Both the position numbers and the translations under genes were made by a program. DNA of 64,000 bases from a virus: IMG/VR virus record IMGVR_UViG_3300045974_000283, positions 113,838 through 177,837 of that record, one strand, 5' to 3'. Positions 7,143-52,148 of the stretch are shown one piece after another. Every line of letters begins with the position of its first letter. Within the stretch, counting starts at the first letter, position 1. The notes under the pieces were generated by a model. The model saw only the letters and a program-made list of their open reading frames with translations. It was not told the DNA's origin and searched no databases.

Positions 7143-7745
7143 ATGAGCATTCAAGTTTACGCGACGCGAGTCGTCGCTGCAGATTCCTCACTGAAGGACG
7201 CTGCGATCCAAGCGATGCTGTACCAGATGCGTCATGAGATGATGGCAAGCGCTATCACCCTCAAGAAGTTTTGTCAGCGTGGATTTGTTGAAGACGTCCT
7301 CGATGATGCGGCTCTTGTGGACGGCGGTCCCTTGAGTGTCGTTGCCAAGGATCCGTCTCTGAGAAAATCTTTTCTGGCAATACCTTTCGCCAAGTGGGAC
7401 GAGTTCTACAAGAAGAAGTTCTCAGGAAACCTATCTTTCAAGGGTCTTCTGAAGCCTGAGGTCAAGCTCCTGAAGGAAATCACGTACCGAACGGGCTATA
7501 CCATCGATGTGGAAGCCCTGTCAGGTGCCAACAACTCCAACCCAATCACCCTCAAGGTGATCTCGCCCAACAAGATCGCCATCGGTTCCGGCGGTCGCGG
7601 ATGGGACAGCCCGGTCTTCACTGCGCAAGATCTCGCAAGCCTCGGCATGACCGTCGACTCTGTGAAGGAGATGTTTGCCAGGTTCGGCCTTGGAACCGCG
7701 AAGCGTGAAGTTCAGCGCAAGCCCAAGATGCTCGGTCCCGATTGA
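7143..7745 (+). CDS. Hypothetical (likely head) protein
   Basis: 200 aa, RBS present; N-terminal RVVAAD motif shared with other head-module ORFs. Confidence 0.6.
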   Translation: MSIQVYATRVVAADSSLKDAAIQAMLYQMRHEMMASAITLKKFCQRGFVEDVLDDAALVDGGPLSVVAKDPSLRKSFLAIPFAKWDEFYKKKFSGNLSFKGLLKPEVKLLKEITYRTGYTIDVEALSGANNSNPITLKVISPNKIAIGSGGRGWDSPVFTAQDLASLGMTVDSVKEMFARFGLGTAKREVQRKPKMLGPD

Positions 7746-25177: not shown

Positions 25178-26092
25178 ATGACCAAGAACGCACTGAAGAC
25201 CGTCGCTCAGCCGATCCCCTTCCCGCCCCACATGGAACAAGCGGCCTTCTGGATTCGGGAGCGGGAGAGCATCCGCCAGAAGAAGGACTCCGGCCTGCCG
25301 CCTCCGTGGACTCAAGATCCAATGATGGCGGGGACGAGATGGTGCAACGTGAGGCGGATGGACGATAAGGTCAGCAAGTGGCTTCTCGATCACTTCTACG
25401 TCAAGAACCTTCCGCCAGCTCAGATGGCCGTCGGCGCGGCACTGGCTCGCCTCATCAATCGTCCTGAGACACTCATCCGCATGTGTCCCTCAGGTTATCA
25501 AGGCTTCGACAACGCCCGGTTCCGCAAGGTGCTCCGAGCCATGAAGGCTGCGAAGGAGCAGATCTTCACCGGCGTCTACATCATCAACGGTGCGCAAGCC
25601 AACGGCCGCGACAAGTGGGAGCTCGTGCTCGACAACCTCGACGGGATGCGCCGCGCTCTCAAAGACAAGGACCTCGATCTGTCGTCCATGTCCGCAGTCC
25701 ACACAAAGCTGATGGAGACCAAGGGTCTGGGCTCTTTCTTGGCAGGTCAAGTCGTTGCTGACCTGCGACACGTTCTGCCTCAAGGTCAATGGCTCGACCG
25801 CAACACTTGGGCTCCCGTCGGTCCCGGTTCCACGAAGGGCCTCAACTACGTGTTCAACACACCCGGTGAGCGCACGACGCAAGCTCGCTTCAACGAGCTT
25901 CTCCCGATCTATGTCAAGGCGGTTAATAAGATGCCCGGCATCGCTGCCATCGCCCGCGAACGGAAGCTCGAAGCGCATGACTACCAAAATACGCTATGTG
26001 AAATTTCCAAGTGGGCGCGCCTGCGTGAAGGCGGACGTTCGAAGAACAAGTATCAAGCGAAGCCGCCCGGTGAACAGCTGACCCTTCTGTGA
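25178..26092 (+). CDS. aGPT-Pplase / 5-hmdU DNA kinase helical-domain family protein (thymine hypermodification)
   Basis: WIRERESI...PPPWTQDP....RWCNVRRMDDKVSKW; later GLGSFLAGQVVADL (HhH-like) and VGPGSTKGL, YQNTLCE. Clade assignment is from memory. Confidence 0.8.
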   Translation: MTKNALKTVAQPIPFPPHMEQAAFWIRERESIRQKKDSGLPPPWTQDPMMAGTRWCNVRRMDDKVSKWLLDHFYVKNLPPAQMAVGAALARLINRPETLIRMCPSGYQGFDNARFRKVLRAMKAAKEQIFTGVYIINGAQANGRDKWELVLDNLDGMRRALKDKDLDLSSMSAVHTKLMETKGLGSFLAGQVVADLRHVLPQGQWLDRNTWAPVGPGSTKGLNYVFNTPGERTTQARFNELLPIYVKAVNKMPGIAAIARERKLEAHDYQNTLCEISKWARLREGGRSKNKYQAKPPGEQLTLL

Positions 26093-26098
26093 GGCATC

Positions 26099-26950
26099 AT
26101 GAGTGAACTAGCCATCTACATCCCGAGTCGGAGCCGCTTCGAGAAGTCCCTTACCTTGAAATACTTGACTCCGAACTGGGACAAGGGACCGATCTATCTC
26201 GTGGTGCCCGCTGAGCAGCGCAAGGACTATCGGTTTCTCGCCAAACAATACGGCGTGACCATCCTGCCGTGCTCGGAGTCTGGCATCGCCTTGACGCGTC
26301 TGTTCTGCGGTGAACACGCCACGGACAAGTTCATCATGTTCGATGACGACCTCCGCTTCTCCTACCGACCCAAGCGGAACAAGGAGACGGGCATCGACCA
26401 GACGGGCAAGAACGCTCAAGGACTAAGGCTTTACAAGGCCGAAGGCAGCCAGATCACGCGAATGCTGACCATCGCTGAGACGCTGCTCGACAGATACGCT
26501 CACATCGGGGTCTCGCCTCGCGCGGGCAACCAATCGATGCCTCTGCCGATACGCGAGTGCGCTCGCCCGCTACGCGTCCTTGGCTACCGCAAGCGAGAGT
26601 TCCTCTCATGTGAACACGGCCGCGTCGCGATCATGGAAGATTTTGATGTCACACTTCAGTTGTTGACGCGTGGCTACAAGAACGCCTTGATCACGACGCA
26701 TGTGAACGATCAGCTCGCGACGAACACGGAAGGAGGCTGCTCCGATTATCGCACCGAGAAACTTCACAACACGAATGTCAAGAAGATGCACTCCCTGTGG
26801 GGAGTGCCGATCACCAAGATCGTCGAGAAGAAGAACGTCAGTGCAGCGGCCTTGGCAGCGGGTCTCGCCGCCCGCAAAGAGCTGAACATCCAATGGATCA
26901 AAGCCTGGAAATCCTCCGGCAAAGACCTCAAACCCAGACTATCACGGTGA
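26099..26950 (+). CDS. GT-A glycosyltransferase, TAGT/GREB1/J-glucosyltransferase-like
   Basis: IYIPSRSR, YLVVPAEQ, IMFDDD (DxD), EDFDVTLQLLTRG, GGCSDYRT. Confidence 0.8.
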   Translation: MSELAIYIPSRSRFEKSLTLKYLTPNWDKGPIYLVVPAEQRKDYRFLAKQYGVTILPCSESGIALTRLFCGEHATDKFIMFDDDLRFSYRPKRNKETGIDQTGKNAQGLRLYKAEGSQITRMLTIAETLLDRYAHIGVSPRAGNQSMPLPIRECARPLRVLGYRKREFLSCEHGRVAIMEDFDVTLQLLTRGYKNALITTHVNDQLATNTEGGCSDYRTEKLHNTNVKKMHSLWGVPITKIVEKKNVSAAALAAGLAARKELNIQWIKAWKSSGKDLKPRLSR

Positions 26951-26953
26951 CCC

Positions 26954-27940
26954 ATGGACATCTATCCTGTTGACCCTCCTTTCAGCCTTCAAGTCGAGCC
27001 CACTGAGGGCTGCTCGTTGGCTTGCTCATTCTGCGGCATCGCTTCTATCCGCGACAATGGAGCCAACGCCAACGAGGGCGTCCACGGCAAGAACTCCGCT
27101 CCCTACAAGCACATGGAGCGGGCCACCCTGATCCGACTGATGAAAGAAGTGAAGCGGCTCAAGTGGAATCCCCGCATCGAGTTCGCGATGCACGGTGAGC
27201 CTTCGATGCACCCTGACCTTCCTGGACTGGTCTCGGCGACCCGGAAGATTCTCGGCAATTCAGCTCACATCATGATCACCAGCAATGGCTCAGGTCTGAC
27301 CACGCCTGAGAAGATCAACGCGTTGATAGCGGCTGGCCCGAACACGCTGGCGCTGGACGACTACAAGCACGCCAAGTTCATGCCGAAGATCAAGGAGTTC
27401 GTGCGGACTCTTGGTCACACTGTGTTCGACTATCCGGCTGACAAGGAAGGCAACCCGCACCATCGCAACAAGGGCAGTCGCATCGTCCTGATCAACGACA
27501 TCAGTGAGAACACCGACGGCAACCATCAACTGACGAACCAAGGCGGAAGCTCGTTCGATGCTTTGACCGAGCCGCTCGTGCGTCGCTGCGCCAAGCCGTT
27601 CCGCGAGCTGTCTGTGCGCTGGGACGGCAATGTCGCCATCTGCTGTGACGATTGGGTCGGAGCCTACAAGATCGGCAACACGAACGAGCTGCCGCTCGAC
27701 GAAATCTGGCTGCACCCGCGTTTCGAGGCGGCTCGCCGTCGCCTGTACGCCAAGGACCGCGACTTCGGCCCGTGCAAGGGCTGCAACGTGAAGACCATGC
27801 GCGACGGCCTGCTCCCCGACAAGATGGGGAAGGGCGAGATGAAGGGCGTCTCTCCGGCCAGCGAGGCGCACCTGCGAGCGGCTCTGCGCGGTCGCATCTT
27901 CTCGATCAAGGAAGTCAAGGAAGTCAAGAGCGTCGCATGA
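26954..27940 (+). CDS. Radical SAM enzyme with SPASM/twitch domain
   Basis: CSLACSFC (CxxxCxxC), HGEPSMHP, ITSNG; C-terminal CAKPF..LSVRWDGNVAICCDDW...CKGC. Confidence 0.93.
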   Translation: MDIYPVDPPFSLQVEPTEGCSLACSFCGIASIRDNGANANEGVHGKNSAPYKHMERATLIRLMKEVKRLKWNPRIEFAMHGEPSMHPDLPGLVSATRKILGNSAHIMITSNGSGLTTPEKINALIAAGPNTLALDDYKHAKFMPKIKEFVRTLGHTVFDYPADKEGNPHHRNKGSRIVLINDISENTDGNHQLTNQGGSSFDALTEPLVRRCAKPFRELSVRWDGNVAICCDDWVGAYKIGNTNELPLDEIWLHPRFEAARRRLYAKDRDFGPCKGCNVKTMRDGLLPDKMGKGEMKGVSPASEAHLRAALRGRIFSIKEVKEVKSVA

Positions 27941-29157
27941 AAACAGTCCTCGTCCTCGACCTGCTCTACTACGATGTTCATCCGACCGTCCACAAGAACG
28001 GTGTCACGCCCACCGCTCTTGAGGAGGCCTCCGTTCTGGCAGCGCACGGGTATCGGGTGATCTTCGGGTGCGCTGGCTCCAACTTGAACCGGCTGAAGAA
28101 AGCGTATCCTGAGGTCGAGTTCGTCAACCTGTTCCCGCAGACCTATGCCAGCATGCTCGATGACGACAAGCACACGGTTGAGAGTTCTGGCTTCTCTCCG
28201 ACGGTGGCAGCTAAGATCAAAGAGATCGTCATCAACGAGAAGATCTGGGTCATCTCGTGCTCGTCGATGCGTCAGCTGCTCAAGCATCTGGAGAAAGTAG
28301 ACCTACCGTGCCCTGTCGTGTACACGATGCACTTCTGGCCTCAGCCAAATCTGATGTTCCACGCGAGCACGGTCGGTGGTCTGCTGGCGATCCGTGAGAA
28401 CCCCAAGTTCTACATCTGTGCCAACACCGAGTTCACGATGGAGCAGCACCTTGAGCAGTCGCGGCTTGCTCACGCGAAGGGCTTGATTCGTGGTTCCGCT
28501 CTCGCGGCCTACGATCGCTTTGAGGGCAACTACTCGGACAGCTTCTGGAGACGCATGACCTGTAGCGACTCGGTGCCGGACATCCCAGTCTGCAACGTAC
28601 CCTCCGGTCGCCTCATAGTTGCCAGTCGCACCCACAAGGCCAAGAACCCTGTCTTCTGCTCGGCAAGTCCCCTGATCGACTTCCACCTTCTGGTCTATGA
28701 GAACCCAGACAAGGACGCTCAAGCCATCCTGGACAAGATGGCGTCGGTGGGTGCCAGCGTGCAACGCAACACCCCTCAGGTCAAGCTCTACAAGCTGATG
28801 GCGCGCAGCTCAGGGGTCGTGGTCTCATGCACGTTCGAGACCTTCGCTCGTACATCTTTCGAAGCGGCCTGCTCGGGCGTCCCTAGTCTGGTGTTCGTGG
28901 ACAAGACAGGCAAACACGCCGTCCATTCCTGGAGCCAGCAAGCGGGCGTTCAGTTCGACTCGTTCCGTTTCGCCGACCTGAAAGACCGCAAGAACCGATT
29001 CAAGGCAGCGGTCGAGCATGTCGCCACAGGCTGGTCGTATGAGGAACGGCTGGAGCTCAAGCGGAGAGTTCGCAGCTACTTCAGCGCCAAGAACTTCGTG
29101 GCCGAGCGTACCTCTGCGTTCAAGGCGGCATGGTCCAAAATGAAAGCGTCCTCATGA
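27937..29157 (+). CDS. GT-B (GT4-like) glycosyltransferase
   Basis: N-terminal Rossmann strand MKTVLVLD; C-terminal ETFARTSFEAACSGVP (E-x7-E motif). Confidence 0.75.
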   Translation: MKTVLVLDLLYYDVHPTVHKNGVTPTALEEASVLAAHGYRVIFGCAGSNLNRLKKAYPEVEFVNLFPQTYASMLDDDKHTVESSGFSPTVAAKIKEIVINEKIWVISCSSMRQLLKHLEKVDLPCPVVYTMHFWPQPNLMFHASTVGGLLAIRENPKFYICANTEFTMEQHLEQSRLAHAKGLIRGSALAAYDRFEGNYSDSFWRRMTCSDSVPDIPVCNVPSGRLIVASRTHKAKNPVFCSASPLIDFHLLVYENPDKDAQAILDKMASVGASVQRNTPQVKLYKLMARSSGVVVSCTFETFARTSFEAACSGVPSLVFVDKTGKHAVHSWSQQAGVQFDSFRFADLKDRKNRFKAAVEHVATGWSYEERLELKRRVRSYFSAKNFVAERTSAFKAAWSKMKASS

Positions 29158-30170
29158 TCAACATCCTTCACTGTTCGCCGTGGCCCATAGGCGGCGCAAC
29201 GTCGTACACAGTTCACCTCGCATCTGTCTTCGAGAAGACAGGTGTCCCTCACCGGATCATCCGCTTGGCAAAGAAGACTGAGCGCAAGTCCCGTGAGATG
29301 GGTTCCTACGGGGTTTCTTATGTCAACACCTCCGTCGAGGACGCGGCCAAGCTGGACGGCAAGTTCCTGCTCGCATCAGCGCCAACGGATGAAGACATGG
29401 GGCTGGCCTGCGCCAAGCTAGTCGAGCGTTCCCGTGGTGCCTACGTCTTCCACGATCCCAACGAGTTCGGCATGTACCCTCATTGGGACGCCAGAAAGCG
29501 ATGGGGCTCTCGGTGCCGGGCAAGCGTCATCTGCATCCGCGAGCAGGGTCGTGTTCATATCCCCGAGGGCGTGTTCATTCCCCACCCATACGTCCGCACC
29601 TTCTCCAAGAAGACTCACAACGATGCCAAGACCAAGACGGCTGTCAGCGTCGCGCGGGTGAGCGGTGTCAAGAAAGCCCACTGGATCATCGAAGCGAACC
29701 AGACCCTACACGAAGCCGCCCGCGTTGACCTACGCGGAGAGGTCAATCGCATGTGGTGGAAGTTCACCATCGAGAAGAAGTTCCCCGGCATCCAACTGCC
29801 TGAGAACGCTGGCTTTCCCCGCATCATGGGTGCCGCTGCTGAGATCTGCAAACCCTATCAGCTGATGGTCGATCTGACCATCTTCAAAGAGGACGGCGGC
29901 GGAACTCAGTACGCGATGCTCGAAGCCATCGACGCGGGCGCTGTTCCCGTGATGACCAAGGAATGGTGCTCGTATCCGGGCAAGGCCAGTGACCTCGTGA
30001 TCCAGATCACCGACACGGATGGCCTGAAACGCCTCTTGAAGTCCTCACGGAAAGGCGTGCTCATGAGCGACATCGACGGCCTTCGCCAGTCGAACTACGA
30101 GTATCTCGATTCCGTCCACTCACCCAAAGCGGTCAGCCGCGCCTACGTCTCAGCCCTGGAGTCTGCATGA
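29154..30170 (+). CDS. GT-B glycosyltransferase
   Basis: GGATSY loop; VSVARVSGVKK; DLTIFKEDGGGTQYAMLEAIDAGAVPV (degenerate GT4 motif). Confidence 0.75.
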   Translation: MINILHCSPWPIGGATSYTVHLASVFEKTGVPHRIIRLAKKTERKSREMGSYGVSYVNTSVEDAAKLDGKFLLASAPTDEDMGLACAKLVERSRGAYVFHDPNEFGMYPHWDARKRWGSRCRASVICIREQGRVHIPEGVFIPHPYVRTFSKKTHNDAKTKTAVSVARVSGVKKAHWIIEANQTLHEAARVDLRGEVNRMWWKFTIEKKFPGIQLPENAGFPRIMGAAAEICKPYQLMVDLTIFKEDGGGTQYAMLEAIDAGAVPVMTKEWCSYPGKASDLVIQITDTDGLKRLLKSSRKGVLMSDIDGLRQSNYEYLDSVHSPKAVSRAYVSALESA

Positions 30171-30793
30171 AAGTTCTCGTCACGGGAAACCCCCGAAGTG
30201 GCACCCTGTCCCTCAGTCTGACGCTGCGCAAAGCCGGACTCGATGTCGGCCACGAGCGCATGGGCAAGGACGGTACGGTGTCGTGCTTCTTCTTCAAGCA
30301 AGTCGAATACTACCCCCGGGAAGGTGGAACCGAGAACCGTCACCTGACCGACGGCAAGGATGACAACTTCGATGAAGCCGAGTTCGACTTCGCTTACCAT
30401 CTGGTGCGCAATCCGCTCAAGTGCATCCCATCTATGCAGAAGATCGTCAACCGTCGCCACCGACAGTGGATACGGGACATCGGCATCTGCGAGTGGGACC
30501 CCAAGAACCAGTCGAACATAGAGTGGTGCGCCTTGGCGTGGTATCACACGAATCTGTACATCGAGCAGAACCTGAACTTCCCTCGGCTGCGGGTGGAGAC
30601 CCTCTTGAAAGACTGGCCCAATGAACTGTGCCCGCGTCCAACCGAGATCAAACACTCGCACAAGAGCTCGGGCTTTCGCAAAGCTGCACCGATCACTCCG
30701 GCTCAGCTCACGGATATATCGGGAGCGGCCCTTTCCAAATCCATCCTCGACATGGCGCGCCGCTACGGCTACGCCAAGTCCGACCTTCAGTAG
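30167..30793 (+). CDS. Sulfotransferase-fold P-loop protein
   Basis: VTGNPRSGT (5'-PSB loop), VGHE, HLVRNPLKCIPS (3'-PB R-x-P-x5-S), LRVETL. Confidence 0.75.
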   Translation: MKVLVTGNPRSGTLSLSLTLRKAGLDVGHERMGKDGTVSCFFFKQVEYYPREGGTENRHLTDGKDDNFDEAEFDFAYHLVRNPLKCIPSMQKIVNRRHRQWIRDIGICEWDPKNQSNIEWCALAWYHTNLYIEQNLNFPRLRVETLLKDWPNELCPRPTEIKHSHKSSGFRKAAPITPAQLTDISGAALSKSILDMARRYGYAKSDLQ

Positions 30794-30810
30794 TTCAACC
30801 CGGAGTTCAC

Positions 30811-31611
30811 ATGACATCACCTTCACAATTAGTTTTTCCAAAAGCGACCTACCGTAGTGTTCGCGGGGTCATACCCGATAGAGTTTTCACTGTCACCGAG
30901 GTCAGGCCGAACGAAAGTTCTCCGAGCGCATCCATCATCTGTTACACCGACGGCCAAACAGGCACCTGGATGATGGACCAGAGATCTTTCCTTGAGGAAT
31001 TCGTTCTGCTCAAGCCTTACGAACCGGAGCCGCCTTTCAAGGTCACCGCTGGCACCCTCTACCGCCACACCAAGTCCGGCCTCCTTGGTTCCCTGTGGTC
31101 CTTGAACGGCTACCGAGCGCTCTTCGAAGTCATGCTTGTGGAGGGTGACGTTCGGTTGCGCCGGGTCTCGGTCGACCGAGAGCTCCAAGCGAACTTCGAG
31201 TCTGGAGTCGACGAGTTCCGGGACCAGACACTGAACCTCCTGTACCCGCCCGCGTCGATCGTGATCTTCACGCACCTGTCGTTCCTCCAGTCGTTCACGC
31301 CCGTCCAGTTCAAACTTCAGCGGCCTGAGGACCCCAAGCCGAAGCCCCCAAGTTCTGGCCGACCGGAGTGGCTGATCCGCATCGACGTCGAGGCAGGCGA
31401 GCTGAGCGTCAAGATGCAGAAGCTCACCACGTTCCTGTGTGAAGTTCACCTGCTTCCCGAAGGCCGCAAGCCCACGGCTTCACAAGAACTGCTGATGCGC
31501 CTGCAACTGGACGCCATGCGCCTCTACTACCAGATCCTGCTGAATCGTCTCAAGGACGGTGAGGACGCGATGGCCGACGCTCAGGTCGTTCACCATATAG
31601 GCAACGCATGA
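30811..31611 (+). CDS. Hypothetical protein with C-terminal crAss001_48-like helical hairpin
   Basis: PEWLIRIDVEAGELSVKMQKLTTFL...LQLDAMRLYYQILLNR. Confidence 0.6.
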   Translation: MTSPSQLVFPKATYRSVRGVIPDRVFTVTEVRPNESSPSASIICYTDGQTGTWMMDQRSFLEEFVLLKPYEPEPPFKVTAGTLYRHTKSGLLGSLWSLNGYRALFEVMLVEGDVRLRRVSVDRELQANFESGVDEFRDQTLNLLYPPASIVIFTHLSFLQSFTPVQFKLQRPEDPKPKPPSSGRPEWLIRIDVEAGELSVKMQKLTTFLCEVHLLPEGRKPTASQELLMRLQLDAMRLYYQILLNRLKDGEDAMADAQVVHHIGNA

Positions 31612-31937
31612 CTGATGCTGTCCAACCCCCAGAAGAAACCAAGCCGCCTCTGACCGAGTTTCAACGCGGCGCTCGGGCGATGTTCGACTACTTCCATATC
31701 CGGGCGGCGAACAACTGGCATGGCAACCCGAAGGTCCAGGAGCAGTGCGCCAAGGAAAACACCCTGCTCCTGAGCTGGGTTGAGGACGCCCTTGAGAGTG
31801 TGGATCCCGCCATCCACGCCGAGTGGAAAACTCTCCAGGAAGCCACCAAGAGCGCCTATCACCAAGGGTATCTCGACGCCTTGGCAACGAAACAGTCCCA
31901 CAATGCTCCACCGACAACAAAGGCGTCCGTCGTATGA
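31608..31937 (+). CDS. Hypothetical protein
   Basis: ATGA-coupled, 109 aa. Confidence 0.6.
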   Translation: MTDAVQPPEETKPPLTEFQRGARAMFDYFHIRAANNWHGNPKVQEQCAKENTLLLSWVEDALESVDPAIHAEWKTLQEATKSAYHQGYLDALATKQSHNAPPTTKASVV

Positions 31938-32383
31938 CCCCGCACAAACAACTCAACCTCCACAAGCCGCTTGAAGGCCAGATCGGCGACTGCTTCCGCA
32001 CGGTCATTGCCTGCTTGCTCGACCTGCACCCTTCGGACGTACCTCACTTCTACCAAGAGGTCTGGCACGAGCCCGATGCTGCTCAGACTGCTGAACGCGA
32101 ACTTCGCAAGTTCTTGCGGCACTATGACCTGGACTTCATCGAGGTTGCCTACAAGGACACCTTGCTGAACGTCATGGAAGCGCAAGCGATCATGAACCCC
32201 GGCATCTACTACCTGCTGACAGGAAACTCAGCGAACGGCGTCGGTCACGTGGTCATCTGCTGCGGAGACCAGATCGTCCACGACCCGGCCATTGACAATT
32301 CCGGTATCGTTGGCCCTTCCGACACCGGGAACTATCACATCACGTGGCTCGTGCCAAGTCTCATGCGCCGCCTTGCCTGTTAA
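31934..32383 (+). CDS. Papain-like (C39-type) fold protein
   Basis: GDCFRTVIACLL (Cys), GHVVIC (His), IVHDP (Asp). Confidence 0.6.
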   Translation: MTPHKQLNLHKPLEGQIGDCFRTVIACLLDLHPSDVPHFYQEVWHEPDAAQTAERELRKFLRHYDLDFIEVAYKDTLLNVMEAQAIMNPGIYYLLTGNSANGVGHVVICCGDQIVHDPAIDNSGIVGPSDTGNYHITWLVPSLMRRLAC

Positions 32384-32384
32384 T
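32379..32384 (+). promoter_or_regulatory. GTTAAT putative phage promoter box
   Basis: GCCTGTTAATGG overlapping the stop codon, 42 nt before ATG 32421. Confidence 0.6.
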
Positions 32385-32420
32385 GGCCCCGCTTCACAAC
32401 CCTCACTGAAGATTTCCATC

Positions 32421-33620
32421 ATGAACAAACCGACCCCGGTCACCGATCTCAACGGCGCGATCACGCTCGCAGCCACAAGCCCGGACAGCCATCTGTTCCG
32501 GCTGCTCTACCTTCTCCAGTCCGAACAGTATCACGGCGTCGTGGCCCAGACCGAGAGCCGCAACGGCCCCGTCCTGCGCTTCACGGTGCCTGTCATCACT
32601 TCGTGGATTTGCCCCGATCAGCGCGTGAGCTTCTGGGACAAGCGCGATGCCAATCCATTCTTCCACTACATGGAAGCGATCTGGATGTTGGCGGGCCGCG
32701 ACGACGTTGCCTTCCCGTCCTACTTTGCCAAGCAGATCAAGCAATTCTCCGACGACGGTGAGACCTTGAACGGTGCCTACGGCTATCGCTGGCGCAACTT
32801 CTTCGACAACGGCAACTTCGATCAACTCGAAGACGCCATCGCTCAGCTCAAGGCGAATCCCTCGTCGCGTCGCGTCATCCTGCAGATGTGGCACGCGGTC
32901 GCTGATCCGCAGAGCGCCGCTGAGGGCTCGAAGGACGTCCCCTGCAATATCTCGGTGATGTTCGATGCCGTCAACGGCAAGCTGAACATGACCGTCGTCT
33001 GCCGCTCCAACGACATCATCTGGGGTGCCACGGGCGCGAACGTGGTCCACTTCTCGATTCTGCACGAGTACGTCTCGGCGGCTGCGGGCCTGCGCGCTGG
33101 CACCTATCATCAGGTGAGCAACAACCTTCACGTCTACACCGAGTTCCCGGTCTCGAAGCCGCTGCTGGAAGCCACGGACGATCCGACACCGGAAGAACTG
33201 CGCGGTGACTATCCGGGCGAGGCGCTCGACCTGTACGCGGCGCGTGAGAACGGTCTTTTCCCGATGCCGCTGTTCCGTTCGAACGAAGTGGTCGATGCCG
33301 ACGAGTTCGATGATGTCCTGCTGGATACAGACTTCCTGGACGCGATTCGGGAAGAGTTCGACGAGGATAGTGTTTCGCGTCAGCAGAACATCCAAGCGTA
33401 CATTGACGCCTTGAAGGAAATGGCGATTACCGGAGCTGGATGGCGGCAACACGCCAACGTGATGCAGGCTGCTTTCATCATGCACCGCGAGCTTGGTCAA
33501 ACCTCTGAGGCCATCGAGTACCTCAAGGAAGCCAACATCGGCCCCGACTGGAAGCTCGCATGTGTCAACTGGCTCCAACGCCGTCTGGACGCCGCCAAGG
33601 CAAAGGAGATCGCAGCATGA
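32421..33620 (+). CDS. Thymidylate-synthase-family dUMP hydroxymethylase (5hmdUMP synthase)
   Basis: ESRNG, DANPFFHYMEAIWMLAG, GAYGYRWR, SRRVILQMW, DVPCN (catalytic Cys), RSNDIIWGATGANVVHFS, NNLHVY. Confidence 0.82.
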   Translation: MNKPTPVTDLNGAITLAATSPDSHLFRLLYLLQSEQYHGVVAQTESRNGPVLRFTVPVITSWICPDQRVSFWDKRDANPFFHYMEAIWMLAGRDDVAFPSYFAKQIKQFSDDGETLNGAYGYRWRNFFDNGNFDQLEDAIAQLKANPSSRRVILQMWHAVADPQSAAEGSKDVPCNISVMFDAVNGKLNMTVVCRSNDIIWGATGANVVHFSILHEYVSAAAGLRAGTYHQVSNNLHVYTEFPVSKPLLEATDDPTPEELRGDYPGEALDLYAARENGLFPMPLFRSNEVVDADEFDDVLLDTDFLDAIREEFDEDSVSRQQNIQAYIDALKEMAITGAGWRQHANVMQAAFIMHRELGQTSEAIEYLKEANIGPDWKLACVNWLQRRLDAAKAKEIAA

Positions 33621-34312
33621 AAGACCGCTTGATTGGCTTGGGTCTCCCGCACGACCCCGAGTTCGCCGCTCGGGTTCAGTCATTCACGGCTGTCCACGCT
33701 CATGTTCGTGGCTGCGCGACCAAGCGCTACCACACTGAGCCCACGCTGCAGAACGAGACGGTCGGCGCTCACGTCGGCTTCATGGTCGGTGCGGCCTTCA
33801 TCATCTACGACACGCCTTCGCTGGCGCTACTCAAGGCCATCAGCCTGCACGATCACATGGAAGCCATCACTGGCGACATGCCCGCGCCGATGAAGGTCCG
33901 GAGGCCCGAGCTGAAAGCCATCATCGACGAACTGGAGATGGAGTTCCACGGCGAGTCGAAGCTGCCCGGCTGGCCCATGCTTGACGCGCACGAAGAACGG
34001 CAACTGAAGGTCTTGGACCGCCTGTCAGGAGTCGCCTGCGCCTCGCAAGAACTTCGCATGGGCAACTGGAGCGTCCACCACGTTCTGGGTGCCTTCTGCG
34101 GTTACTTCGCGACGCTGAAGCCCGAATGGAAGGAGCTCTACTTCTTCGAGGGTCTTCTGGACACCGCACCGAATCGCAACCGGGCTGTCCCCGACGACAC
34201 AAAGCGTCTGTTCGAGGCGATGGTCAAGAGCGTCCGTGAGGCGGCGTCTCCCAAATACCGCACGAACCCCAAGCCGGACGGCATGTCTTCCCTCGGTCCA
34301 ATCGCGAGCTGA
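33617..34312 (+). CDS. HD-domain 5'-deoxynucleotidase (YfbR/DatZ-like)
   Basis: KRYH..., ETVGAH, SLHDHMEAITGDMP, LKVLDRLS. Confidence 0.85.
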   Translation: MKDRLIGLGLPHDPEFAARVQSFTAVHAHVRGCATKRYHTEPTLQNETVGAHVGFMVGAAFIIYDTPSLALLKAISLHDHMEAITGDMPAPMKVRRPELKAIIDELEMEFHGESKLPGWPMLDAHEERQLKVLDRLSGVACASQELRMGNWSVHHVLGAFCGYFATLKPEWKELYFFEGLLDTAPNRNRAVPDDTKRLFEAMVKSVREAASPKYRTNPKPDGMSSLGPIAS

Positions 34313-34836: not shown

Positions 34837-35298
34837 ATGTCGCTCACCGCTGCCCAGATTCTCAAGTCCCTCGCCCGAGTGCCACCCGGCAAAGACGGCG
34901 AGGACCGTTTCGATCGTGCCACCCGCGTGAAGGTAACCGAGCTCAAGCGCGGCAAGGTCAAGACGAACGGCAACATCCGCTTCCTGTGCAAGACCAAGAC
35001 CCCGGAACACGTCAAGGGTCGCCTCATCGTGGAGACTTACGTCACCTCGGTCGAGTTCAAGATGCAGGGCAAGATGGCGGGCAAGTACGTCATTGTCTCC
35101 TGCGGATGCCCGGACTTCTGCTTCATGTGGGAATACAACCTCACGCAGAAGGATGCGTCCATGATCAAGTACGGCAACGGCGAGGCCCCCACGAAGCCGA
35201 TTCCTATCGGCATGTGCAAGCATCTGATCCGCACCTTCGATCAGCTCGTGACAAAGGCTCAAGTCGACTCCAAATTCGTACTCCCGGTGACCACATGA
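34837..35298 (+). CDS. SWIM zinc-finger protein
   Basis: VSCGCPDF...MCKHLI (CxC-xn-CxH). Confidence 0.8.
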   Translation: MSLTAAQILKSLARVPPGKDGEDRFDRATRVKVTELKRGKVKTNGNIRFLCKTKTPEHVKGRLIVETYVTSVEFKMQGKMAGKYVIVSCGCPDFCFMWEYNLTQKDASMIKYGNGEAPTKPIPIGMCKHLIRTFDQLVTKAQVDSKFVLPVTT

Positions 35299-36272
35299 GC
35301 AATAACTACGCACACAGCACCAACTTCGCCGGGATGAAGAATGTCGCAGAGCAGTTCGACTCGAACCTGACCTCCGCACAGTATCTTCAGGCGTTGGACA
35401 GCCTCCTGTTCCGCGCCTACTCGCCGATCATAATGGCGACCAACTCATTCGACGCCCTCGTGGGTCAGCTCATCGGCTGGCAAGAAACTACACGCAAGCG
35501 CAAGGTCTCGTTCCAGCATCGGGACGAGTTCATTCCCATCGCACTGACTTGGCTGTGTCTACCGTCTCGGGAAGAGAAGGCCGCACGGGCTGCGGATCTG
35601 CTGCTGGACCGGGCTGCTCTAGCTGAGTTCGTCGAAACCTTCATAAGCTCGATGGATCGATTCGAGCAGGCGTCCAACCTCCTGCTGACCGACAAGGACG
35701 GCAACCCGTGTTCCATCGATGAGCACATGGCCTTCGCCCACTCCGTCGTGGACTCGTGTGGTGCGCCATCCATAGGTGTTCTGCTAAACGCCATCACCGA
35801 GAGCAAGCTCTACATCAGCCGTTATCACAAGTTCGCGGAAGCCATCATGACGCGGTTCACCCGCCTCTGCCTGATGACTGCTCAGCGCGACTACGTGAAC
35901 GTCTTCGGGCACTCCATTGATTTGAACGACGCTGTCCAGGTCTACATGATGGTGGCCCGCCGCGCCATCGACAAGTGTGACCCGCGCCAAGGCGTCCTCA
36001 CCTCGCACATCCAGTCCTGGCTCAAGTCCGGTCGCTCCATCATCGCCGACCAACAGAAAGGCGACGGCAGCGCCATCACGCTGGATGACACCGAGGAAGA
36101 ACCTTACGAGGGCTCCGAGGCGGAAGCGGTCAGTCGCAGCGAACATTCAAGCCGCGTCAGCGAGATCGCCCGTCTTGTTGACCCCGAAGGCTACGGTCGA
36201 GCTTGGCTCGGCCTGAACGAATCACCAACCTGGATACGCTCACAAATGGAAGCCCTCACCACGCATCAGTAA
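35295..36272 (+). CDS. Phage sigma70-family factor (region 2 present, region 4 not recognisable)
   Basis: TRFTRLCLMTAQRDY...DLNDAVQ...RRAIDKCDPRQGVLTSHIQSWL parallels NLRLV..AKKY...DLIQEG..GL.KAVDKFD..RG..FSTYATWWI. Confidence 0.72.
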   Translation: MSNNYAHSTNFAGMKNVAEQFDSNLTSAQYLQALDSLLFRAYSPIIMATNSFDALVGQLIGWQETTRKRKVSFQHRDEFIPIALTWLCLPSREEKAARAADLLLDRAALAEFVETFISSMDRFEQASNLLLTDKDGNPCSIDEHMAFAHSVVDSCGAPSIGVLLNAITESKLYISRYHKFAEAIMTRFTRLCLMTAQRDYVNVFGHSIDLNDAVQVYMMVARRAIDKCDPRQGVLTSHIQSWLKSGRSIIADQQKGDGSAITLDDTEEEPYEGSEAEAVSRSEHSSRVSEIARLVDPEGYGRAWLGLNESPTWIRSQMEALTTHQ

Positions 36273-37011: not shown

Positions 37012-37932
37012 ATGCAAGCTCCACTCCCACTGAAAGAGCTCTACGAAGCTCAGGTCGCGCTCAACGCCAAGACCCTCCCGGCCTTCCTGCCCTGCGGCGC
37101 GGCAAAGAAAGTCTTCATCGATGCGCGTGACCAATCTATCCGCCTCCCGGTAGACTTCAAGCAAGCCATGCAGCGCGAGCTCGATGAGCTGGCCGTCGTG
37201 CTGCCCTTCGGCCACTGGAAGGATACCGCCAAGCAGATGCGCGCCATCAGCTTCAACGACTTCCAAAATCTCCTCCTGGAACTGGTGGACATTTTCCACT
37301 TCCTGATGAGCGAGAACTTGGTCGAAGTGGCTTCGGTCTGCAACGACGGTCAACCTGATCTTGACGTGATCGTCAAGCACTCGGTGGCTCGCCACACAGA
37401 GGCCCTCCTGTTCCTGGCACCCCGTGACCCGTCGATCACGACCTTCGCAGACGTCTGGCACAAGGTGAACGAGAACGGCCAGATGAACATCGGCGACTTC
37501 TGCACACTCGCCAACCTGAACACTGAGGTGAGCAGTTTCAGCGCTCGGCTGGCCCCCGGTGCCACGCTCGAATCGGAGCGCGTGATCTACAACTTCCACA
37601 CCCTCCTGAGCATGTTCGGCTTCTCGAACGATGACCTGCTCACGGTCTATCGCGGCAAGGGCGTTCTCAACGAGTTCCGCCAGTGCAACGGCTACCGCGA
37701 CGGCAGCTACATCAAGCAATGGAAGGGCGCTGGAACTTCCACCATCGAGGACAACGTGGTGATGCTCGGCATGATCAGCCGGAGCATTCCGGCCTTCCTG
37801 CCCGATGGTGTCGAGCCCTACGACTTCTCACCCGGCGAACTGTTCATGATGTTGGACGCCGAGTACAAGGCGATGAAGGCTGTCCTGGAGTCGAAGAGCC
37901 GCACCTTCAAAACTTCAGACGCCCACTCTTGA
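37012..37932 (+). CDS. dut: Dimeric all-alpha dUTPase (dUTPase_2 family; possibly dTTP/dCTP active)
   Basis: AMQRELDEL...WK, ELVDIFHF, YRGKGVLNEFRQCNGYRDGSYIKQW..EDN match Campylobacter-type dimeric dUTPase motifs. Confidence 0.85.
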   Translation: MQAPLPLKELYEAQVALNAKTLPAFLPCGAAKKVFIDARDQSIRLPVDFKQAMQRELDELAVVLPFGHWKDTAKQMRAISFNDFQNLLLELVDIFHFLMSENLVEVASVCNDGQPDLDVIVKHSVARHTEALLFLAPRDPSITTFADVWHKVNENGQMNIGDFCTLANLNTEVSSFSARLAPGATLESERVIYNFHTLLSMFGFSNDDLLTVYRGKGVLNEFRQCNGYRDGSYIKQWKGAGTSTIEDNVVMLGMISRSIPAFLPDGVEPYDFSPGELFMMLDAEYKAMKAVLESKSRTFKTSDAHS

Positions 37933-47809: not shown

Positions 47810-48090
47810 ATGACAAGCCTCAGTTCGGCATCTTGCTCGTTGGTCTCGCGGCTCTGGTCGGGTTCCTAGTTCTGGTGGCCCCGCGAATGGAAGCTCCGAT
47901 TGCAGATCATGGCAACCCGGAATATCTGGCCGAGAGAGCGAGAGGCATGGCCGCAATCGCAGCGGCGCGCGATGCCGAAATCGAGGAGCAATGCGCTACG
48001 AACCGACGCAGCCGCCGAAGCTGTCACTACTTCTACACGCAGAAGGAGTTCCAGCAAACCCACAAACGGCAACTCGGAATATCACCGTGA
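47806..48090 (+). CDS. Small membrane-anchored protein
   Basis: GTGA overlap; N-terminal TM (FGILLVGLAALVGFLVLVA). Confidence 0.55.
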   Translation: MNDKPQFGILLVGLAALVGFLVLVAPRMEAPIADHGNPEYLAERARGMAAIAAARDAEIEEQCATNRRSRRSCHYFYTQKEFQQTHKRQLGISP

Positions 48091-50573: not shown

Positions 50574-51265
50574 AACAATTCGAATTCCACCACACCGTCA
50601 CAGGCATCTCGGTCAAGATGTTCGCCCACCTCTGCCTTCAGAGGCGGATGCGGGCGCTGGTCATCGACAACCTGACCAACGACACCGGGAAGACCGTGTC
50701 GCAGGATTTCATCACTGCTTCCGAGTTCAAGGACGAGATGAGCTATAGCGGGGCACTTGAAATGCTCGCTTACCAGAAAAGCTTCCTGGTCAGCGCGGGA
50801 GCGGTCGTGCTTCGTAGCAAGATCGAGGTAAACGCCAAGCAAGAACTAGCTGGAATGCCGATTCCGCTTGGCGACATCATGCTACCTGCGGGCATGTACC
50901 ATGAGACGCATGTGACCGTGTCAGTGCCCGACGAGAAGCTTCCGCAGTTCTTCAGCGTCGCCCGCCAGCACAGGTTCCACGTTTCTATGGACGGCCTGCA
51001 GAATGCTCACCGCCATCGCCGTCTGCGTCCGGGCCACAAACAACAGGACGCAAAGTTCTGGTTGACGGCGCGCTCACCAGATGCCAGCCTCGTGCGTCTG
51101 GAATCGCATACGAACGCCATGATGTGCGACCTCGACAGCTTCTCTATCAGCCACAAGGAGCCTCAGTACGAGCTCGTCATCCATGACAGCAATCTGCCGC
51201 ACGACGACCGTTGGATGGGCCGACCCCGTCAACTGTCTGACGATCTTTATGCGTTGGCGGCATGA
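50570..51265 (+). CDS. Hypothetical protein between the polA halves
   Basis: ATGA-coupled; YHETHVTV...ELVIHDSNLPHDDRW C-terminus. Confidence 0.7.
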   Translation: MKQFEFHHTVTGISVKMFAHLCLQRRMRALVIDNLTNDTGKTVSQDFITASEFKDEMSYSGALEMLAYQKSFLVSAGAVVLRSKIEVNAKQELAGMPIPLGDIMLPAGMYHETHVTVSVPDEKLPQFFSVARQHRFHVSMDGLQNAHRHRRLRPGHKQQDAKFWLTARSPDASLVRLESHTNAMMCDLDSFSISHKEPQYELVIHDSNLPHDDRWMGRPRQLSDDLYALAA

Positions 51266-51567
51266 TGGGAGTTCTTACTTCTTCTGCTCCGAAGGTCACG
51301 CGCATCGACTACGGAGAACTCGCCAAGACCGACCCCAAGGCCGCGCTGACCTCTTGGTTTGACTTCCACTCCCAGGATCACAACGAGGAACATATGACGG
51401 TGGCGCCGGAACGCTCGGCGCCTTTCTACGTGACCCGCCTCGCTGAGGACGGTCAATACTACGGTAGCGACCGCATCCTCACGGAAGCAGAACTCCTGAA
51501 GCGGAAGTTCACCCTCTCATGGACGCAACGTGATTACCCATGGATAAGTTTCGAGGACGAGTCATGA
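51262..51567 (+). CDS. Hypothetical protein between the polA halves
   Basis: ATGA-coupled, 101 aa. Confidence 0.6.
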   Translation: MMGVLTSSAPKVTRIDYGELAKTDPKAALTSWFDFHSQDHNEEHMTVAPERSAPFYVTRLAEDGQYYGSDRILTEAELLKRKFTLSWTQRDYPWISFEDES

Positions 51568-52148
51568 CGTCTGCTCCCCCGAAGTACCTGTCAGGTGGCG
51601 TCATGACGCCTATGCAAATCACCTTCTTGGCTCGCGAGCTGTTCGTGTTCAGCGAGATCGTCAAGGGCAACATGGACCGCTATCCTGAGGATGATAACGT
51701 CTGGAACGAGCCAGAGGTGTCCATCGCTGTCCGTATGTACTGGGAACCTATCGCTCGTCACGCTATAGCTCTGGCCGGGCCTGTCATCTCCAAGTCCGCC
51801 GCCGAGATGACGTCGATGGTCAACAACCATCTGGTCTTGTCCTGCGTCGCCTATGCGGTTCATCATAGAACTGTGCTCGCGCAACCACGCGGATCTCGTG
51901 TTCACCTGTCGCCTGATTCGGTGGCTGAGATCGTAGCCGGATATATGCCGTCTATTGGTTCTACTGTGGCTCACGGCAAGGCGCAGTCGCTTGGTCTTGT
52001 TGGTCGATCACTTGAGTCAATCAAGAAACTGGAGCAGCTTGAAGACTACGAGATGGACCGGGACGAACTAAGGGATATTCAGCAATCGCTGCTCGAATAT
52101 CAGTCTTGGCTGATGACTTCGGCGGTGACCGACAAGGCAGCATCATGA
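51564..52148 (+). CDS. Hypothetical protein between the polA halves
   Basis: ATGA-coupled, helical. Confidence 0.6.
   Translation: MTSAPPKYLSGGVMTPMQITFLARELFVFSEIVKGNMDRYPEDDNVWNEPEVSIAVRMYWEPIARHAIALAGPVISKSAAEMTSMVNNHLVLSCVAYAVHHRTVLAQPRGSRVHLSPDSVAEIVAGYMPSIGSTVAHGKAQSLGLVGRSLESIKKLEQLEDYEMDRDELRDIQQSLLEYQSWLMTSAVTDKAAS

Follow-up and report, generated by a model that had tools for sequence, protein, structure and literature searches.

The genes at positions 25178-34312 (+ strand) of the analyzed window, a 64,000-nt stretch from an uncultured large phage (IMG/VR record of 177.8 kb in total, CheckV completeness about 74%), most likely swap thymine for hydroxymethyluracil and then add tailored, possibly sulfated sugars on DNA. 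Judging from homology and gene association, from which all mechanistic steps are drawn, it is probable that the operon makes a sugar-based DNA hypermodification derived from 5-hydroxymethyluracil (5hmU) and bypasses the route through a kinase and an amino-acid transferase. In this scheme g11 would hydroxymethylate dUMP, g12 and a dUTPase_2 protein would bias the nucleotide pool, and the phage polymerase would put 5hmdU in the place of T. The TAGT enzyme g3 would O-glycosylate the 5-CH2OH on DNA (compare base J), the radical SAM (rSAM) enzyme g4, paired with the TAGT, would oxidize a sugar hydroxyl to a keto-sugar or a downstream product thereof, g5 and g6 would extend the glycan in this phage, and g7 would sulfate the glycan with PAPS as donor.

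The genes form one co-oriented, translationally coupled block, in which no gap or overlap exceeds about 40 nt. Each of the eight gene types listed by the initial annotation is recovered on the + strand where it had placed them (Pfam, phrog, Atlas, ORF positions), and its list lacked three genes, g8, g9 and g10 (30811-32383). In HMM and neighborhood searches HMUDK_hel (HEL) and TAGT score above threshold, Sulfotransfer_3 is matched by members of the g7 family, and ADDT has no match over its cut-off. The gene order is the same in L074, a relative with 97% identity that comes from other samples. More broadly, homologues of the rSAM gene define 62 related IMG/VR loci, 44 after dereplication. A ThyA-like gene is present in 33/44, all 33 of which also carry a TAGT or a g6-like GT-B; HMUDK_hel is found in 30/44, and an HD gene follows the ThyA-like gene in 21/44. 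Tet_JBP appears as an alternative in 6/44, never together with ThyA or HEL, and synteny with ThyA-like or Tet_JBP genes plus HMUDK_hel extends over 39/44 dereplicated loci. Because the ThyA and Tet_JBP partners both make a 5-hydroxymethylpyrimidine, the pair of rSAM and glycosyltransferase (GT) is expected to act downstream of that group. The core HEL-GT-rSAM-ThyA-HD module is widespread in uncultured phages. The enzyme set had been called unusual, and it does differ from M6-type routes, but it is not unique: besides this common core, phiRSL1 has GTs, a sulfotransferase and an APS kinase.

The three added genes, although part of the 9-kb block, are probably anti-defence or unrelated genes outside the chemistry. 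g8 (30811..31611, +, 266 aa) ends in a Sequestin domain (PF21825, Pfam 1.2e-9, 38.4 bits; cut-off 24.8), an anti-Thoeris sponge family (10.1101/2025.07.12.664507); it is kept in L074 and is probably an anti-Thoeris sponge fusion rather than an enzyme of base chemistry. For g9 (31608..31937, +, 109 aa) and g10 (31934..32383, +, 149 aa, phrog_5845) we found no homologue among the 62 related loci and no tie to the modification module, and g9 is missing from L074.

The first arm of the proposed pathway makes the modified nucleotide. g11 (32421..33620, +, 399 aa) is the sole ThyA-like gene in the record and encodes a ThyA-superfamily protein of the dUMP hydroxymethylase type (Pfam 5.5e-24, phrog_5131 5.6e-100), with its catalytic Cys in PCN and the hydroxymethylase MilA as top PDB match. 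It has Asn at the position equivalent to N177 of TS, aligned with the TS 'PFN'; at this site MilA, a CMP hydroxymethylase, carries 'SD'. Its best matches are phiRSL1 ORF230 (42%) and the M6/YuA/PaMx11 group (38-45%), and its nearest relatives are hydroxymethylases of phages with 5hmdU-derived DNA bases (PMC5889632); from the Asn type and these relatives, uracil specificity is the best reading. g12 (33617..34312, +, 231 aa) is an HD-domain YfbR-like 5'-deoxynucleotidase (PF12917 1.9e-7, 31.4 bits, cut-off 25.9) homologous to PaMx11 gp52. A dUTPase_2/NTP pyrophosphohydrolase encoded outside the reported span (37012..37932, +; PF08761 3.7e-11; phrog_173), also kept in L074, is likely a supporting nucleotide-pool enzyme.

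g2 (25178..26092, +, 304 aa), the single HMUDK_hel copy in the record, is tied to this hydroxymethylase arm rather than to the rSAM/GT arm. Its earlier identification as an aGPT-Pplase/HMUDK-helical protein stands, as a clade-1 member (PF18723 2.6e-42) that is 28-31% identical to PaMx11 gp50, PhiW-14 gp72 and phiRSL1 ORF231. We do not, however, read it as a transferase by default, since the clade-1 protein gp55 of M6 was dispensable for in vitro reconstitution (PMC8989533). Cys274-Glu275 and Lys278 are invariant in the g2 family, and Cys274 aligns, if weakly (hhalign E 0.056), with the catalytic Cys247 of PaMx11 gp46 (PMC11472151). Because it retains a catalytic-type Cys, g2 may do real chemistry outside the proposed scheme.

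g7 (30167..30793, +, 208 aa) is a small phage sulfotransferase-family protein with the motifs PRSGT (5'-PSB-like) and R81-N-P...S89 (3'-PB-like) and with conserved PAPS-loop residues. Its own Pfam matches are sub-threshold, but 14/22 family members match Sulfotransfer_3 (best 9.9e-8); in the Atlas it has TM 0.57-0.65 to sulfotransferase clusters, and its family profile found no solved sulfotransferase structure. Homologues of g7 lie inside HEL/TAGT/rSAM/ThyA clusters in 3/3 independent contexts examined (L070, L071/72, L073), and an APS-kinase-like gene follows the rSAM gene in the L052 group. One could imagine that sulfate replaces phosphate as the leaving group: g7 would sulfate the 5-hydroxymethyl, and the Cys-Glu enzyme g2 would attack C6, expel the sulfate and couple a nucleophile, either a sugar hydroxyl or some other metabolite, to the exocyclic methylene, much as a 5-HMUDK and clade-2 pair would. 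The weak alignment of the invariant Cys-Glu is consistent with this, as are the presence of HMUDK_hel in every g7-family context examined and the finding that neither a kinase nor PF18724 (ADDT) scores over the family cut-off in the whole 177.8-kb record. We nevertheless consider it unlikely. Most HEL clusters are without a sulfotransferase-like gene (g7 family in 0/62 rSAM loci; a second candidate family in 4/44 dereplicated loci), so sulfation cannot be a general requirement for HEL; 4 kb and three glycosyltransferases separate g2 from g7; and the annotation in phiRSL1 is that of a sugar (Gal-3-O) sulfotransferase. Sulfation of a glycan is the role that we prefer for g7.

The second arm begins with g3 (26099..26950, +, 283 aa), a TAGT-family GT-A (PF20691 4.5e-15, phrog_842 7.5e-36) whose DDD motif, D82-D83-D84, is invariant among 23 homologues. 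TAGT is a glycosyltransferase family acting on DNA bases, and g3 is our candidate for the enzyme that places the first sugar on 5hmU in DNA. A TAGT adjoins the rSAM gene in 33/44 dereplicated loci, and the two are fused in the proteins P0029 and P0032. The neighboring g4 (26954..27940, +, 328 aa) has Radical_SAM and SPASM matches in Pfam and resembles the twitch enzyme BtrN of butirosin biosynthesis (PDB 4M7T/4M7S), a radical SAM protein with one auxiliary 4Fe-4S cluster, in both profile and predicted fold. Besides C20/C24/C27 it has all four twitch cysteines of the auxiliary cluster (C212/C230/C274/C277); its family profile matches 4M7T with E 7.1e-25, followed by a next best PDB match of 5.6e-6 and anSME at 6e-5; and its AF2 model (pLDDT 92.7) has 4m7t as top Foldseek match (E 6e-16, TMt 0.81). 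BtrN oxidizes a secondary alcohol of an aminocyclitol. Since g4 is encoded among phage genes for DNA modification, its substrate must differ from that of BtrN, to which g4 is only about 21% identical while being ~60 residues longer. The initial annotation had suggested a radically rearranged base, which we do not favor: profile and fold indicate a dehydrogenase of the hydroxyl-to-ketone type, not an SPL-like isomerase as in M6. Because g4 is BtrN-like and also occurs with Tet_JBP clusters, its role points to sugar tailoring rather than to M6-type isomerization of a base adduct. Its substrate may be the DNA-linked sugar, the NDP-sugar donor or the 5-CH2OH itself.

If g4 acted on the base side chain, it would convert 5-CH2OH to 5-formyl-U/C or form a C-C bond, and the glycosyltransferases would follow, using the resulting group or a linker as in the linker-type modifications of SP-15 and YerA41, where a linker lies between C5 and the sugars (PMC13697223). 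The rSAM gene is indeed found with either source of 5-hydroxymethylpyrimidine, and anSME, whose type of rSAM dehydrogenase turns CH2OH into CHO, is among the weaker g4 matches. Such an oxidation, however, removes the hydroxyl required by TAGT-family enzymes, and BtrN, an enzyme that targets a ring hydroxyl, far outscores anSME (E 7e-25 vs 6e-5). Both the TAGT-rSAM fusions and the constant adjacency of the two genes are in keeping with successive steps on a sugar. Homologues of g4 comprise 428 cluster representatives at E<=1e-30; in cultured phages we found no relative of it apart from weak Campylobacter phage matches. We therefore regard a base-directed g4 as improbable.

Of the two GT-B enzymes proposed earlier, g6 is clear and g5 only probable. 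g6 (29154..30170, +, 338 aa, start confirmed by a 338-aa orthologue in L074) is GT4-like, with TM 0.76-0.83 to GT4 clusters in its Atlas structure and language-model features (Atlas) at 0.99 to PF11440 AGT clusters, T4-type DNA alpha-glucosyltransferases being closest; homologues occur in 14/44 rSAM loci. g5 (27937..29157, +, 406 aa) is nearly an orphan, with one homologue cluster only (P0002, 51% identity), syntenic with TAGT-rSAM. It has a weak match to the NCBIfam sucrose-phosphate synthase GT domain over residues 269-351 (E 1.3e-3) and an E-x7-E-like motif, E301-x7-E309, read from the sequence; its model is of low confidence (pLDDT 49), and nearly all of its best Foldseek matches are GT-B. 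It is probably a GT-B (GT4-like) protein, with an insecure identity as a glycosyltransferase.

The GT-B and sulfotransferase folds are generic, and the tail genes include a further GT-like fragment (7143-7745), as might be expected if the glycosyltransferases, rSAM and sulfotransferase were mere neighbors of the nucleotide genes and had a target other than DNA, be it a glycan of the host envelope, proteins of the virion or some small molecule. We give this little credence, given the tight, repeated synteny over 39/44 loci, the membership of g3 in a DNA-base family, the TAGT-rSAM fusions, and the g7 family, for which every context examined was a cluster of this kind. Recurrent synteny and fusions go beyond the gene list in making glycosylation with sulfation as an add-on the most coherent reading, as first proposed.

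Pfam scans of the ~50 window proteins agree that the window is without a P-loop 5hmdU kinase or PLP enzyme. Absences from the record are provisional because it is only about 74% complete: the remainder of the genome could encode a kinase, a clade-2 transferase, PLP enzymes or PAPS synthesis, and a small P-loop protein (genome 1072-1803) with weak resemblance to thymidylate kinase may have a DNA-kinase role. An ordinary M6/ViI-type amino-acid or polyamine route, with kinase and clade-2 transferase in the unsequenced ~26% and the sugars secondary, would suit this completeness and the clade-1 protein beside the kinase pathways of M6, ViI, PhiW-14 and SP10 (PMC5889632), but is very unlikely given that a gene like PaMx11 gp46 or gp49 is near the module in 0/62 related loci, of which many are on contigs of 50-100 kb, that 19 kb of the TAGT-containing phiRSL1 cluster has no kinase or AADT match, and that known phages cluster kinase/transferase genes with the hydroxymethylase.

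The block has several features in common with the M6/YuA, PaMx11, ViI, PhiW-14 and SP10 pathways: the dUMP hydroxymethylases belong to one clade (38-45%), an HD protein comes next, a clade-1 aGPT-Pplase adjoins the hydroxymethylase, and 5hmdU is elaborated after replication (PMC5889632, PMC8989533). As the initial annotation held, it otherwise departs from these routes: there is no detectable P-loop 5-HMUDK, PF18724 clade-2 amino-acid:DNA transferase, or PLP, FAD or acetyltransferase tailoring enzyme, the rSAM is BtrN-like where M6 gp53 is SPL-like, and one GT-A, two GT-B and one sulfotransferase are present instead. Protection from restriction and CRISPR would be expected by analogy with other modified phages.

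The closest cultured relative is the Ralstonia jumbo phage phiRSL1 (ORF229-ORF238, NC_010811; ThyA 42%, RecA-like 43%), with syntenic SWIM, sigma and SSB genes. Its HMUDK_hel lies directly upstream of the hydroxymethylase, and just ahead of this pair phiRSL1 encodes three TAGTs, a Gal-3-O-type sulfotransferase, its own APS kinase and NDP-sugar enzymes, among them two nucleotidyltransferases. The 19 kb examined has no BtrN-like rSAM or g5-, g6- or g7-type protein; we found no published report on its DNA chemistry.

As in base J of trypanosomatids, glucosyl-5hmC of T-even phages and phage TET/5mYOX + GT clusters, GT-A (TAGT/JGT-like) and GT-B enzymes would O-glycosylate a 5-hydroxymethylpyrimidine within DNA, with sequential GTs leading to di- or oligosaccharides (PMC8256090; 10.1101/2023.12.21.572611). 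In contrast to these systems, the acceptor here would be made from dUMP before replication, without a dioxygenase, and the cluster includes a dehydrogenase-type radical SAM enzyme and a sulfotransferase as integral members. Numerous GT genes beside ThyS genes had been counted by Pyle et al., in a text from which the terms 'radical SAM' and 'sulf' are absent (10.1101/2023.12.21.572611). The oligosaccharide thymidines of YerA41, SP-15, Carin-5 and RP13 likewise start from 5hmdU, with aGPT-Pplase1 and no detectable 5-HMUDK, and the YerA41 adduct is oligosaccharide-like and of about 1 kDa; this group differs in having sugars on a C-linked polyol linker and SP15-like UDG-PolA polymerases (PMC9023294, PMC13697223), and no g4-type rSAM was detected in cultured phages. 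Oligosaccharide-modified thymidine is already documented chemically in YerA41, and the kinase-less enzyme set described here recurs in many uncultured phages.

The modification genes sit in a single 177,837-bp virus sequence, the window being its final 64 kb; the record is listed as linear in IMG/VR, CheckV puts its completeness at about 74%, and its G+C content is about 59%. Between 25178 and 34312 every gene is on the + strand, and neighbouring genes overlap or are separated by at most about 40 nt. The initial annotation read this block as an aGPT-Pplase, a TAGT-like GT-A enzyme, a radical SAM protein, two GT-B enzymes, a sulfotransferase, a ThyA paralogue and an HD nucleotidase. These gene types are borne out at their coordinates, with the GT-B assignment of one gene (g5) provisional, and three further genes (g8 to g10) had been overlooked; g9 (31608-31937) has no assignment and g10 (31934-32383) none beyond phrog_5845. 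The arrangement is not an accident of assembly, because a phage of 97% identity, found in other samples, preserves the order rSAM-g5-g6-g7-g8-g10-ThyA-HD: the cluster is real and conserved. Among 50,697 phage records, megablast found no match to the 9-kb block, and a scan of the operon boundaries for promoters and terminators found sites no more numerous than in shuffled sequence. Among cultured phages, the Ralstonia jumbo phage phiRSL1 is closest (42% identity in ThyA, 43% in the RecA-like protein), with syntenic SWIM, sigma and SSB genes. At 34837-36272 a small SWIM-like gene is coupled to the gene of a sigma-like protein; the two have syntenic homologues in phiRSL1, ORF226 and ORF224 ('RNA polymerase sigma factor'), and Pfam gives no family for either protein. 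Elsewhere in the window a family A DNA polymerase is apparently split into ORFs at 47991-50573 (Pfam positions 25-231) and 52694-53602 (238-317), with three or four small ORFs in the about 2 kb between them (50570-52657).

The base to be modified is indicated by g11 (32421-33620; Thymidylat_synt, Pfam 5.5e-24, phrog_5131 5.6e-100), the only ThyA-like gene in the whole record. The protein retains the catalytic Cys (PCN), its top PDB match is the hydroxymethylase MilA, and among phage proteins it is most similar to the phiRSL1 'deoxyuridylate hydroxymethyltransferase' and to the enzymes of M6, YuA and PaMx11; the DNA of M6 and PaMx11 contains 5hmdU-derived bases (PMC5889632, PMC8989533). From this kinship with phage hydroxymethylases we infer that g11 would hydroxymethylate rather than methylate. 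An Asn of g11 aligns with the uracil-reading Asn of thymidylate synthases ('PFN'), where the CMP hydroxymethylase MilA has 'SD', so the target should be uracil, not cytosine. Cytosine is out as a candidate: the residue in g11 is Asn rather than Asp, and neither a Tet_JBP protein nor a C5-methyltransferase was found among the Pfam-scanned window proteins. Downstream lie a YfbR-like HD gene recognized by Pfam (g12, 33617-34312) and a gene for a dUTPase_2 protein (37012-37932). Outside the window, at record positions 1072-1803 (G000:C1:1072-1803), we note a 243-aa Walker-A protein with weak likeness to thymidylate kinases (phrog_2107 E 4.6e-5; AAA_28 E 4.2e-5), most simply a candidate kinase that would pass 5hmdUMP onward.

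Glycosylation of this base is the predicted task of g3 (26099-26950), which matches the TAGT family (PF20691) with 56.6 bits against a cut-off of 27.5 (Pfam 4.5e-15; phrog_842 7.5e-36) and in which the DxD motif, D82-D84, is invariant among homologues. The protein is thus placed in the TAGT DNA-base GT-A enzymes, with 5hmU in DNA as its predicted acceptor. Two further glycosyltransferases would follow. For g6 (29154-30170), the Atlas model (pTM 0.84) compares with GT4 clusters at TM 0.76-0.83 and has the two-Rossmann GT-B fold, and its language-model features lie nearest to clusters of T4-type DNA alpha-glucosyltransferases. For g5 (27937-29157), a weak NCBIfam match to a sucrose-phosphate-synthase glycosyltransferase, an E-x7-E-like motif, and a Foldseek search in which most matches are GT-B (TM about 0.3, with a poor model of pLDDT 49 from a two-sequence alignment) suggest a probable GT-B. 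This protein has a single homologue cluster (51% identity) and is thus close to an orphan; TAGT, rSAM and g5 are syntenic in a relative of 50% GC, at identities of 48, 66 and 51% respectively. Pattern scans across IMG/VR for close relatives of g5 and g7 found none, and single-sequence searches of the PDB with g5, g6 and g7 gave nothing meaningful. A 200-aa ORF among the tail-region genes (7143-7745) aligns with the C-terminal portion of Glyco_trans_1_3 (E 1.1e-6), and may represent a small or truncated glycosyltransferase with no connection to the cluster.

The sulfotransferase assignment of g7 (30167-30793) comes from its family. Alone, the protein matches Sulfotransfer HMMs below their cut-offs (E 0.03-0.09), while 14 of its 22 homologues match Sulfotransfer_3 (PF13469, best 9.9e-8) and 10 match Sulfotransfer_4 (PF17784). 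The family conserves a 5'-PSB-like PRSGT (R10-S11-G12-T13) and a 3'-PB-like R-N-P...S (R81/P83/S89), residues of the PAPS loops, and the fold compares with Atlas sulfotransferase clusters at TM 0.57-0.65; a search of the PDB with the family profile found no solved sulfotransferase. In all three independent contexts examined, the g7 family lies inside the same type of cluster: writing HEL for the g2 type and SULF for the g7 type, these loci read HEL-TAGT-...-SULF-rSAM-...-ThyA (L070), HEL-TAGT-SULF-...-TAGT-...-ThyA-HD (L071/72) and HEL-rSAM-312aa-SULF-ThyA-HD (L073). In phiRSL1, the genes immediately upstream of HEL and the hydroxymethylase encode three TAGTs, two NDP-sugar nucleotidyltransferases, a Gal-3-O-sulfotransferase and an APS kinase, and a group of related IMG/VR loci (L052-L056/L060) has an APS-kinase-like gene after the rSAM gene. 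The same group encodes, between TAGT and rSAM, a protein of 260 aa that has an RRSGGH motif in its N-terminal part and no Pfam match, possibly a second sulfotransferase-like family. Taken together, the g7 contexts, phiRSL1 and this group argue that sulfation is an add-on that turns up repeatedly, in several lineages. No APS kinase was found in the record, which is about 74% complete, and a literature search for sulfotransferases combined with hypermodification returned nothing relevant. A glycan that is specifically sulfated is put forward as a tentative reading.

In a less likely alternative, the sulfate would serve as a leaving group for a transfer catalysed by g2 (25178-26092). The protein matches PF18723 over its full length (HMUDK_hel; 145.5 bits, cut-off 25; 2.6e-42), that is, clade 1 of the aGPT-Pplases, which comprises M6 gp55, PaMx11 gp50, ViI gp160, PhiW-14 gp72 and the C-terminal half of SP10 gp186; the amino-acid:DNA transferases with proof are those of clade 2 (PF18724). 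Residues C274, E275 and K278 are invariant across the g2 family, and in an hhalign comparison Cys274 falls, weakly (E 0.056), at the position of Cys247 in PaMx11 gp46, for which a role as C6 nucleophile has been proposed (PMC11472151). The invariant Cys-Glu/Lys set and this weak alignment suggest that g2 may be catalytic. On the other side, the M6 pathway was reconstituted in lysates without gp55 (PMC8989533), and we dropped the view that g2 is a proven transferase, since the M6 clade-1 protein is dispensable in published reconstitutions.

The radical SAM enzyme g4 (26954-27940; Radical_SAM and SPASM in Pfam) is a further predicted tailoring enzyme. A family profile built from 44 sequences matches BtrN (4M7T) in the PDB with E 7.1e-25, the runner-up sequence having 5.6e-6, and the alignment extends over both core and twitch domain and takes in all four cysteines of the auxiliary cluster (C212, C230, C274 and C277). 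The protein has the CxxxCxxC motif and a single four-Cys auxiliary cluster, and its AF2 model (pLDDT 92.7) retrieves BtrN first in a structure search (E 6e-16, TMt 0.81). By contrast, the M6 rSAM resembles spore-photoproduct lyase (PMC8989533). On profile and predicted structure, g4 is assigned to the hydroxyl-oxidising dehydrogenase type and not to the M6 isomerase type; the isomerase role is ruled out, g4 not being SPL-like. The family is large, with 428 cluster representatives at E<=1e-30 in a library of 1.8 billion proteins. At least two of them (P0029 and P0032) are natural fusions with TAGT at the N-terminus and the BtrN-like rSAM/SPASM at the C-terminus, which argues that TAGT and rSAM work together. 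Another homologue (P0037) is split by an intein carrying an HNH endonuclease domain.

What the rSAM acts on can be approached from its neighbourhoods. With g4 as the query, IMG/VR yielded 60 loci (30-55% identity), and the sole g5 homologue brought the number to 62; dereplication at 90% rSAM identity left 44 groups, for which we counted features within ±10 kb. A ThyA-like gene is present in 33 groups, every one of which also has a TAGT or a g6-like GT-B (33/33), HMUDK_hel in 30 and an HD gene in 21; g6-like GT-Bs occur in 14/44, and the most frequent layout is a compact HEL-TAGT-rSAM-ThyA-HD operon. In six groups (L009:191-1108, L010, L026/27, L037/38, L061, L062) the rSAM lies beside a Tet_JBP dioxygenase (Pfam 9e-19), and ThyA and HEL are never present in these; five groups have neither a ThyA-like nor a Tet_JBP gene. 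HEL thus tracks the hydroxymethylase, not the rSAM. Because the rSAM and the glycosyltransferase occur with either type of 5-hydroxymethylpyrimidine-making enzyme, they would act downstream of both, and being common to both systems favours action on the shared sugar over base-specific chemistry. A less likely rival has the rSAM act on the 5-CH2OH itself or form a linker; its occurrence with either enzyme type would fit this too, but the likeness of g4 to BtrN and the TAGT-rSAM fusions speak against it. A target other than DNA is a further, unlikely rival, against which stand the repeated synteny with ThyA-like or Tet_JBP genes (39 of the 44 groups) and the TAGT family itself. Next to the rSAM module, one locus (L049:11382-14759) and the L052-L056/L060 group encode a 1119-1125-aa DNA polymerase III alpha with a C-terminal UDG-superfamily domain.

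To our knowledge, every established path that leads from 5hmdU to a hypermodified thymidine involves a DNA kinase and an amino-acid:DNA transferase. The initial annotation recognised no P-loop 5hmdU kinase or PLP decarboxylase in the window; in agreement with it, a Pfam scan of about 60 proteins of the record, which is about 74% complete, found no P-loop DNA kinase or PLP enzyme. The same partial genome has no match to the PaMx11 gp49 kinase by tblastn and no gp46 homologue, and neither do the 62 related loci; for the clade-2 transferases (PF18724) the record, again about 74% complete, yields a best score of 12.1 bits (cut-off 26.2). Of the features of the M6/ViI-type route, a dUMP hydroxymethylase-type member of the ThyA superfamily is present, as g11; the only small P-loop candidate for the kinase is the weakly thymidylate-kinase-like 243-aa protein. 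The missing part of the genome leaves room for a hidden kinase and transferase, the weakest of the rivals; none of the 44 groups has a gp46- or gp49-like gene.

Not all of the block need serve base chemistry. Residues 186-249 of g8 (30811-31611) match PF21825 Sequestin (38.4 bits, cut-off 24.8), a family whose members sequester the Thoeris signal 3'cADPR (10.1101/2025.07.12.664507). The match occupies the last ~64 residues of the 266-aa protein, the ~180-residue N-terminal part being without assignment, and g8 may be a composite sponge inside the modification operon. The domain suggests that part of the 9-kb block is probably anti-defence rather than base chemistry.

The pathway we propose has five steps. 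g11, aided by g12 and the dUTPase_2, would swap the dTTP supply for 5hmdUTP; TAGT would O-glycosylate 5hmU in DNA; the BtrN-like enzyme would oxidise a sugar hydroxyl; g5 and g6 would extend the glycan; and g7 would sulfate it with host PAPS. Every step is drawn from homology and association, and we consider the overall scheme more likely than not. The full reading, a sulfated oligosaccharide on 5hmU in phage DNA built by a unit of DNA GT-A and BtrN-like rSAM sugar oxidase, is tentative. If it is true, the GT-A/rSAM unit, present in hundreds of phage lineages downstream of hydroxymethylases or TET/JBP dioxygenases, would define a branch of its own in DNA glycan chemistry. The cluster represents a proposed kinase-less, sugar-based route from 5hmdU. 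Characterisation would add radical SAM sugar-tailoring, and possibly sulfation, to DNA-acting enzymes, and could explain the role of the clade-1 aGPT-Pplases. Possible uses include DNA labelling tools and insight into escape from restriction, CRISPR and glycosylase defences. phiRSL1, for which a literature search on DNA chemistry gave nothing relevant, is a cultured test case, as are PhiJL001 and LuckyBarnes for the glycosyl part.

We know of no earlier case of a sulfated nucleobase modification. In the cultured phages PhiJL001 (gp19-gp25) and LuckyBarnes (gp38-gp41), TAGT genes adjoin a ThyA-like hydroxymethylase without an rSAM, and g4-type enzymes in cultured phages are limited to weak Campylobacter phage matches. 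PhiJL001 belongs to the Mesyanzhinovviridae, the family of M6, and its TAGT occupies the place that the kinase/transferase cassette has in the M6-like phage PaMx11. YerA41 thymidine bears an oligosaccharide-like group of about 1 kDa, and related phages have aGPT-Pplase1 and lack the kinase (PMC9023294, PMC13697223). Phage enzymes of the GT-A and GT-B types assemble a variety of glycans on 5hmC, and many glycosyltransferase genes were counted near ThyS genes, in a text that mentions neither radical SAM nor sulfur chemistry (Pyle et al., 10.1101/2023.12.21.572611). To phage 5-hydroxymethylpyrimidine glycosylation the present cluster adds a BtrN-like rSAM and a dedicated family of sulfotransferases, two components that experiments have so far not tied to DNA modification.
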